The position numbers and the translations under genes are program-made. From a virus (lineage: Duplodnaviria > Heunggongvirae > Uroviricota > Caudoviricetes), in IMG/VR virus record IMGVR_UViG_2713896784_000011: a stretch of 17,524 nucleotides of DNA; one strand, 5' to 3'. The notes below the pieces were generated by a model. The model had not been told where the DNA came from. It saw nothing but the letters and a program-made list of their open reading frames with translations, and searched no databases. How positions within the stretch are numbered: position 1 is the stretch's first letter; each line of letters starts with the position of its first letter. Below, in pieces: positions 13,995-14,152 of the stretch.

Positions 13995-14063
13995 TGCGAA
14001 CAACTTTAAGAAAACGCGTTCGACGTCGAACAAAAAACACTCAATTCGACATACAAAAAACAA
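13995..14063. repeat. cosB-like terminase-binding repeats, including a 14-bp perfect palindrome
   Basis: Three copies of a (T/G)CGAAC/TCGACA core (tgcgaacaac, gtcgaacaaaaaaca, ttcgacatacaaaaaaca), phased A-tracts, and the palindrome GTTCGACGTCGAAC at 14018-14031. Located 30-100 bp upstream of the small terminase start. Confidence 0.45.
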
Positions 14064-14132
14064 ATAACCATTAATAATCAATAAGATGCAAAGATGATGG
14101 TGGCCGATAAAAATGCAAAAACTAGCCTTTTT

Positions 14133-14152
14133 CCGCGACGCTCCCGCCCCGT
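14133..14152. other. Candidate cosN (cohesive-end nicking site)
   Basis: Minus strand reads ACGGGGCGGGAGCGTCGCGG, very close to my recollection of lambda cosN (ACGGGGCGGCGACCTCGCGG). Its position, about 170 bp upstream of the small terminase gene, matches the lambda cosN-cosB-Nu1 layout. Confidence 0.45.

Follow-up and report, generated by a model that had tools for sequence, protein, structure and literature searches.

A probable lambda-like cos site of prophage Sp3 of Escherichia coli O157:H7 and its relatives upstream of DUF1441 small-terminase genes

Genes and Features around the Candidate Site

The stretch of viral DNA analyzed in this study (17,524 nt, hereafter the window) matched strain ECP19-598 with 100% identity and, with 99.98% identity, the feature named "prophage Sp3, lambda-like phage" in strain Sakai. 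The window represents prophage Sp3 of E. coli O157:H7, located between ybhC and ybhB. Downstream of the lysis gene Rz (14778–15257, minus strand) and of the region that is the subject of this work, the gene set of the lambdoid phages with DUF1441 terminases was found complete, in order and on the minus strand. It comprised a 163-aa small terminase of the DUF1441 family (13472–13963; Pfam PF07278, E = 4.6e-44), a 700-aa large terminase of the gpA type (11370–13472; Pfam GpA_ATPase, PF05876, E = 9e-72, and GpA_nuclease, PF20454, E = 2e-85), a lambda-family portal (10109–11233), and a fused ClpP-protease/capsid gene (7680–9899). Homologues of this set were detected by tblastn in Gifsy-2, mEp460, mEp213, cdtI, and VT1-Sakai type phages, and in Sakai (ECs_0824) and several phages the DUF1441 gene product bears the annotation "terminase small subunit".

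The large terminase aligned with lambda gpA at 25% identity over 623 aa (BLASTP, E = 3e-19), and belongs to a type that has been linked to 5′ cohesive ends (PMC12315714, citing Casjens and Gilcrease). The locus did not have the features of an HK97-type cos (10-nt 3′ overhang, HNH-assisted), as the large terminase is gpA-type and no HNH domain was found in the neighboring genes scanned. The small terminase gave no BLASTP alignment with lambda Nu1 at E ≤ 100, matched DUF1441 only and not Phage_Nu1 in Pfam, and showed no sequence similarity to any solved structure. Its AlphaFold model (32 homologues, mean pLDDT 79) consisted of an N-terminal strand-helix-helix-hairpin-helix followed by long helices, and this N-terminus has a layout like that of a winged helix. 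The local matches returned by Foldseek were mostly MerR-type winged helices, all of them weak (E 0.04–0.9), and 6hn7_B, from a study of PICI and helper terminases, was among them. The small terminase therefore probably works like Nu1 without being a member of the Nu1 family.

Several features surrounding the candidate site were also recorded. Two minus-strand ORFs that run across it (13953–14342 and 14122–14427) had no Pfam match and were taken as spurious, because similarity among the relatives is lost directly upstream of the cosQ-like heptamer described below. An Rfam scan of 13800–14900 gave no hit that approached a gathering score. At 14585–14604 on the minus strand, between the lysis genes and the site, AGCCTCGCATTCGCGGGGCT makes up a strong hairpin of the terminator kind, with TTTTTATT coming next; it matches a "terminator" annotated at the same place in phage Ayreon. 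A mostly unannotated block of about 290 bp upstream of the site (14283–14576) was 89–95% identical in many Stx1 and Stx2 phages that share neither the terminase nor the cosB; no Rfam match above threshold was obtained for it. Further upstream, an apparently truncated lysozyme ORF (118 aa, 15273–15629) proved to be a masking artifact and not a deletion, and the N-run at 15300–15384 masks about 195 bp of real sequence in the lysozyme gene rrrD. The portal is split (9652–11233, minus strand) between an ORF of 374 aa and a fragment further downstream, corresponding to ECs_0826 and the pseudogene ECs_0827 of Sakai.

Candidate cosN, cosQ and I2 Compared with Lambda and Relatives

A candidate cosN was located at 14133–14154 on the minus strand, where CCACG, the 12-mer GGGCGGGAGCGT, and CGCGG follow each other; the plus strand at 14133–14152 reads ccgcgacgctcccgccccgt, with ACGGGGCGGGAGCGTCGCGG as its reverse complement. 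The only match of the family pattern CGGGGCGGNNNNNNCGCGG in the 17.5-kb window was free of mismatches and lay at 14133–14151 of the minus strand, while about 5e-4 matches would be expected by chance (our own arithmetic, from 13 fixed bases and 35,048 positions), and the match aligned with lambda cosN. By homology, the putative nicks would fall at 14150/14149 on the minus strand and at 14137/14138 on the plus strand, and the 12-mer at 14149–14138 (minus strand) would be the 12-nt 5′ cohesive end.

The comparison was made against the actual lambda sequence, which ends in GGGTCCTttccggtgatccgacaggttacg and begins with GGGCGGCGACCT CGCGGgttttcgctattt, while the window across the site reads GGCTCCTcccggtggggtggcctgccacg GGGCGGGAGCGT CGCGGaaaaaggctagttttt. 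From the cosQ-like heptamer on, the two aligned without gaps except for one spacing base (29 vs. 30 nt), and cosQ, cosN, and I2 could be aligned over about 75 bp. The cohesive end of the window was identical to the real ends of lambda at 8 of 12 bases, including all six of the left half (positions 1–6), with differences at positions 7, 8, 9, and 11; the flanks, CG on the left and CGCGG on the right, were the same in both. Thus, the claim of the preliminary description that cosN is close to that of lambda but would carry a different 12-nt end was supported, the implied end being GGGCGGGAGCGT vs. GGGCGGCGACCT in lambda, and the records of phages cdtI and Tritos open with GGGCGGGAGCGT. In lambda-like phages, changes of the cohesive end are common at positions 7–12 (N15 at 9 and 12; Gifsy-1 at 8, 9, and 11); conservation is seen in the CG pairs that flank the end, in its left half, and in cosQ (PMC4669245).

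To place the site among its relatives, 66 genomic loci and 80 viral contigs encoding relatives of the small terminase were compared. The distinct upstream regions among them numbered about 50 and came from Escherichia, Citrobacter, Klebsiella, Enterobacter, Serratia, Providencia, Pasteurellaceae, and others. About 50 relatives shared one order upstream of the DUF1441 gene: a heptamer, 22 nt, CACG, a 12-mer starting with GGG, CGCGG, and GGCTAGTTTT. The CACG before and the CGCGG after the end, with the CG dinucleotides at both nicks, were kept in nearly all of them, and the variation of the cohesive end was found mainly in positions 7–12, matching the published pattern. The exact 12-mer GGGCGGGAGCGT did not occur in the phage literature searched. 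Natural cosN variation in lambda-like phages is reportedly the subject of a 2017 study by Vahanian et al. (cited in PMC12315714).

A cosQ-like heptamer, GGCTCCT, lies at 14172–14178 on the minus strand, with its first base 29 nt upstream of the top-strand nick. It matches the lambda counterpart GGGTCCT, which sits 30 nt before the lambda nick, at six of seven bases. Among the relatives, the same offset was occupied by GGGTCCT or AGGTACT, and position 3 was C in the window, in Sakai Sp3, and in seven IMG/VR loci, but G in all other relatives, whichever allele they carried. Similarity among the relatives starts abruptly at exactly this heptamer, suggesting that it marks the left edge of a functional module. 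As a further observation, AGGTACT, about 29 nt before the nick (in L020, L022, L028, L037, L039–L041, L050–L054, L056, and L058–L068 of our set, and at 185–191 of the Gifsy-2 locus L167), represents a second natural cosQ allele in many prophages with DUF1441 terminases, in contrast to the statement that natural cosQ variation is not apparent (PMC4669245).

On the other side of cosN, an I2-like segment, AAAAAGGCTAGTTTTTGCATTTTTATCGG, occupies 14104–14132 (minus strand), between cosN and the R3 candidate. Within it, GGCTAGTTTT was conserved over about 50 relatives and resembles the lambda sequence CGCGGGTTTTCGCTATTTATGAAAATTTTCCGG; I2 is known to be conserved among lambda, 21, and N15 (Feiss et al., PMC4669245).

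Organization of the Putative cosB Region

The distance from the nick to the ATG of the small terminase was 186 nt in the window, compared with 190 nt in lambda and 129–130 nt in most relatives. The preliminary description had seen in this interval three repeats of a TCGAAC-type core with A-tracts, laid out like small-terminase binding sites but unlike the lambda R sites. The latter part was supported: the position and layout between cosN and the terminase gene are those of a cosB, and no lambda-type R sequence was found, in agreement with the small terminase belonging to a different family (DUF1441). The repeats themselves were present and clustered, as TTCGACRT occurred three times, always within 14019–14052, against 1.07 occurrences expected over the whole window. 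In addition, a 19-nt direct pair with a start-to-start distance of 26 nt (14019–14037, TTCGACGTCGAACAAAAAA, and 14045–14063, TTCGACATACAAAAAACAA) was 74% identical, and a perfect palindrome of 14 bp, GTTCGACGTCGAAC (14018–14031), includes the middle repeat. However, the third copy, GCGAACAAC at about 13997–14005, was weaker, and an A6 tract followed only two of the copies. As a signal of this single sequence the repeats are modest, and their meaning comes from the comparison with relatives. This comparison suggests that they correspond to R2, R1, and a weaker extra copy, with R2 inverted relative to R1 and R3, and not to three direct repeats; the A-tracts seen on the plus strand correspond to the T-rich spacer and to the run of T that precedes R2.

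The best-conserved candidate site had been overlooked, as had an IHF-like site next to it. The R3 candidate, CCACCATCATC (14093–14103, minus strand), is the proposed small-terminase site nearest to cosN and has a fixed offset of +47 to +57 from the nick; the conserved block in the relatives covers +47 to +60. Depending on the class, R3 reads CATCATCATC, CATCACCACC, or GCAGCAGCA, the last with an NRNxV helix in the terminase, and GTCAGCACTG in Gifsy-2. An I1-like IHF site, AATCAATAAGATG (14076–14088, plus strand), differs by one mismatch from WATCAANNNNTTR. In the window alone the IHF consensus was not above chance (seven matches vs. 12.9 expected), so the site was retained for its positional conservation and not for its score: a match with at most one mismatch was found at the same place (+61 to +65 from the nick) and in the same orientation in 29 of 41 distinct relatives, 12 of the 29 being perfect, compared with 3.1 in shuffles.

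The R2 candidate, TATGTCGAA (14045–14053, minus strand), is inverted relative to R1 and equals the repeat described earlier as TTCGACATA followed by an A-tract. The R1 candidate (14018–14031, minus strand) lies within the palindrome GTTCGACGTCGAAC and equals the central repeat. In the relatives, GATGTCGAA (R2), a 14-bp T-rich spacer, and TTCAYCATC (R1) are found at the same position, and R2 is the reverse complement of R1; in Gifsy-2 the two form perfect 12-bp inverted arms, TTCAGTGTCGAA and TTCGACACTGAA. Since the best inverted repeat of the window was no better than those of shuffles, with Gifsy-2 alone exceeding its shuffles, the pairing of R2 and R1 rests on its recurrence in relatives. 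At R1, Sakai Sp3 and all relatives read GTTCGACATCGAAC, and the window departs from them by a single SNP, at 14024. This change (C vs. T on the plus strand) turns GTTCGACATCGAAC into the palindrome GTTCGACGTCGAAC and creates an AatII site in the R1 candidate.

R3 and R1 share class-specific 6–7-mers that change together, and also with the helix-turn-helix (HTH) of the terminase. Most loci were of the CATCATG class, while mEp460 and the L021 type had CATCAC; CGTGCAG was present in L051 and L055, with the terminase helix NRNxV instead of HRQTV, and CACTGAA in Gifsy-2, whose R2 and R1 are the perfect inverted arms mentioned above. The resemblance between R3 and R1 was lower in the Sp3 class than in the others. 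The joint change of R3, R1, and the terminase HTH is the strongest argument for recognition of these blocks by one protein, and R3, R2, and R1 are accordingly predicted as small-terminase sites from their sequences. The R3-IHF-R2-R1 arrangement, which is defined by comparison while single-sequence repeat scores are near chance, matches the description of the complex lambda-like cosB, in which R2 is opposite to R3 and R1 and IHF binds between R3 and R2 (PMC4669245).

Between R1 and the terminase gene, a 54-bp leader (13964–14017, minus strand) was confined to the Sp3 and mEp460 groups, which share the nick-to-ATG distance of 186 nt. It carries a GGAGG ribosome-binding site (13968–13972) and, as its core, a fourth R-like element, GTTGTTCGCACGATGC (13989–14004), which overlaps the third repeat GCGAACAAC; the leader includes GTTGTTCGCACGATGCATGTTTAAAG. 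This element was nearly invariant between the two groups although their R3, R2, and R1 differ, and it is thus unlikely to be a determinant of specificity. In the relatives with a short cosB, by contrast, the R1 homologue overlaps the small-terminase start codon: the R1 candidate GTGTTCACCATCATG contains that codon in L033–L049 and at 115–132 of the LLS locus (L162). In these relatives, binding of the terminase to R1 could repress its own translation or transcription. Separately, about 100 bp of cosB was found tandemly duplicated in mEp460_ev081 (LR597641.1, L011:323–530), from GGCTAGTTTTTG through the IHF-like site to TTGTTTTTTGT, and this duplication could be natural or an assembly artifact near the genome end.

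Identity, Relatives and State of the Site

Taken together, the minus-strand region 13964–14178 is very probably the cos site of the lambda-like prophage Sp3 of E. coli O157:H7, given the sequence homology of its cosQ, cosN, and I2 to lambda, a layout conserved across the relatives, and the families of the adjacent genes. The features noted in the preliminary description were real, as the cosN match is unique and the repeats cluster above chance in the window, while the bounds 13995–14152 were too narrow, since the site extends from the cosQ-like heptamer at 14172–14178 down to 13964. The nick positions, the bases contacted by the small terminase, and the binding of IHF are all predicted by analogy. 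On the same analogy, the DUF1441 small terminase would bind the R elements of cosB via its predicted N-terminal winged helix and IHF would bend the DNA at the I1-like site. The bent complex would place the gpA-type large terminase on cosN for two nicks 12 bp apart, and the left end of the packaged chromosome would then carry the 5′ overhang GGGCGGGAGCGT. Packaging would run into the terminase and head genes, that is, to lower window coordinates, and would stop at the next cos, the stop requiring cosQ, cosN, and I2.

Compared with lambda, the site has the same order and spacing of candidate subsites, a predicted 12-nt overhang, and an IHF-like site between the first and second R candidates. In contrast, GGCTCCT takes the place of the lambda cosQ GGGTCCT, the R elements bear no sequence relation to the CGTTTCC-type R sites of lambda, the small terminase is DUF1441 without detectable similarity to Nu1, and the large terminases, although gpA-type in both, are only 25% identical. 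The phages cdtI, Tritos, and HannyBb (AB285204, OV696610, and PP925841) have a cosQ heptamer, a DUF1441 small terminase, and an identical cosN and start of I2 (CCACG, GGGCGGGAGCGT, CGCGGAAAAAGGCTAGTTTTT), but their small terminase is only 42% identical and their cosB beyond I2 is unrelated in sequence. Their relation to the window parallels that of lambda to 21, with cosN shared and cosB different. The mEp460 group (mEp460, 4F5, ev081, Ayreon, and phi458) has a small terminase of 86% identity and shares with the window its cosN and its long cosB, the 54-bp leader and GTTGTTCGCAAGATGC included; as its R3 is CATCACCAC and its R1 is TTCATCACT, however, its specificity is probably different. Gifsy-2 resembles the window in its DUF1441 terminase, protease-capsid fusion, long leader, and R2/R1 built on a GTCGAA...TTCGAC core, and differs in having cosQ AGGTACT, a divergent cosN, and R flanks CAGT/ACTG. 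The mEp213/LLS-type phages encode a terminase of this family (about 62% identity) and keep the order cosQ-cosN-I2-R3-IHF-R2-R1, but a short cosB with a nick-to-ATG distance of 129 nt, R1 over the start codon, and neither the 54-bp leader nor the fourth element; the N15-type "simple" cos described by Feiss was grouped with them. Over the cos region, PhiR40_1, PhiR47_1, and PhiR55_1, which were recovered as virions or isolates, were 98% identical to the window.

Several database records bear indirectly on the physical ends. The GenBank records of cdtI and Tritos start with GGGCGGGAGCGTCGCGGAAAAAGGCTAG, at the first G of the 12-mer, and end in CCTGCCACG with CCACG; both were opened exactly where the left end is predicted, their 12-mer being that of the window, and the window cosN is in effect already known from the cdtI record. 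The small terminase of LLS is 63% identical to that of the window, and its record annotates bases 1–12, at the homologous place, as "5'extended single-strand cohesive site GGGCGGCGCGCT". This end was inferred from the putative mEp213 cos, and the LLS nanopore reads did not cover the cos region, the gap being bridged by PCR (PMC12315714). The mEp460_4F5 record (LR595868.1) starts 4 nt before the predicted nick, and at its beginning (L001:1–20) two bases (TC or GC) spanning the predicted bottom-strand nick are missing (GGGAGCG--CGG), which together suggest a sequencing artifact related to the end. The insert of about 150 bp inside cosN of Ayreon, which would have spoken against conservation of cosN, was rejected as real sequence, being an assembly chimera with a piece of the antiterminator Q gene from elsewhere in the genome; this genome was scaffolded and gap-filled (PMC5764929), and a chimera exactly at cosN looks like an artifact at a physical end. 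No such end is indicated by the termini of the mEp460 and Ayreon records, 25 bp short of the terminase gene, as the authors chose to open the genome there.

These records also weigh against a fortuitous resemblance to cosN in a phage that packages by the headful (pac) mechanism or forms HK97-type 3′ overhangs. That explanation is extremely improbable: both gpA domains were matched strongly, and their type is tied to 5′ cohesive ends (PMC12315714); cosQ, cosN, and I2 align with lambda as described; several virion-derived records break at cosN; and the Ayreon assembly is chimeric exactly there. Slightly more weight, though still little, was given to the idea that the TCGAAC and A-tract elements form a weak intrinsic terminator or attenuator, or an A/T-rich bendable spacer, instead of terminase sites. 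A minus-strand hairpin at 14017–14032 is indeed followed by a T-run, being flagged in the scan as TGTTCGACGTCGAACG then CGTTTTCTTA, and the near-chance repeat and inverted-repeat scores of the single sequence would agree with such a role. However, the hairpin has only 5–6 pairs and is absent from the mEp460 group, which has the rest of the layout, while GTCGAA and TTCRNC recur in distant relatives at an unchanged position and 14-bp spacing and change with R3 and the terminase HTH.

Whether the Sp3 site is still used is a separate matter, and here we lean, by a small margin of confidence, toward a site that is cos by descent but a dead relic, never cut or used by the terminase of Sp3 or of another prophage. 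Sp3 was scored as not circularized or excised, not replicated, and not packaged, with an intact terminase (Asadulghani et al., PMC2669165, Table 2), and its defects include a frameshifted integrase, a truncated bet, and the split portal, with no cI, O, or P and thus neither repressor nor replication genes. The C at cosQ position 3, where other relatives of both alleles have G, is consistent with decay, the R1 candidate carries its SNP, and the O157 genome examined has a single copy of this cos. The cosQ substitution in a defective prophage makes function in situ doubtful, and the Sp3 cos is probably idle. On the other hand, cosN, I2, R3, I1, R2, and both terminase genes are intact, and the intact parts are nearly identical to those of PhiR40_1, PhiR47_1, and PhiR55_1. 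Moreover, since cosQ of lambda is needed for termination and not for initiation (PMC4669245), cutting at the Sp3 cos could still occur.

As a further reading, the DUF1441 terminases and their cosB may form packaging-specificity classes distinct from those of lambda, 21, and N15, which from their sequences may be of CATCATC, CATCACC, GCAGCAG, and CACTG types. In this reading the recognition helix of the terminase would change jointly with R3, R2, and R1, and the Sp3/mEp460 group would contribute a fourth R-like element on its 54-bp leader; the family also has the second cosQ allele AGGTACT. If, moreover, cosN and cosB of Sp3 are still cut by the intact terminase while the mutant cosQ blocks termination, unproductive or aberrant packaging of the adjacent nle effector genes could start there. 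The proposal is tentative and at present rather unlikely to hold.

The window site is itself an ordinary member of the lambda-like cos family and opens no new question; it is an unannotated site of a known kind. The 217-bp cos region was present in 2158 of 5426 complete E. coli genomes, in 1375 of them with a coverage of at least 80%, and no annotation lay under the region in any of the E. coli genome matches listed. The value of the finding is thus mostly one of annotation, giving the packaging site and the likely genome ends of a very common E. coli prophage group whose automated annotations are empty here. Points of modest interest are the 54-bp leader, the cosQ substitution of Sp3, the second cosQ allele, and the co-varying R classes found with DUF1441 terminases, and the comparative set would be useful for studies of terminase specificity, of helper-dependent packaging among O157 prophages, and of cos-based vectors.
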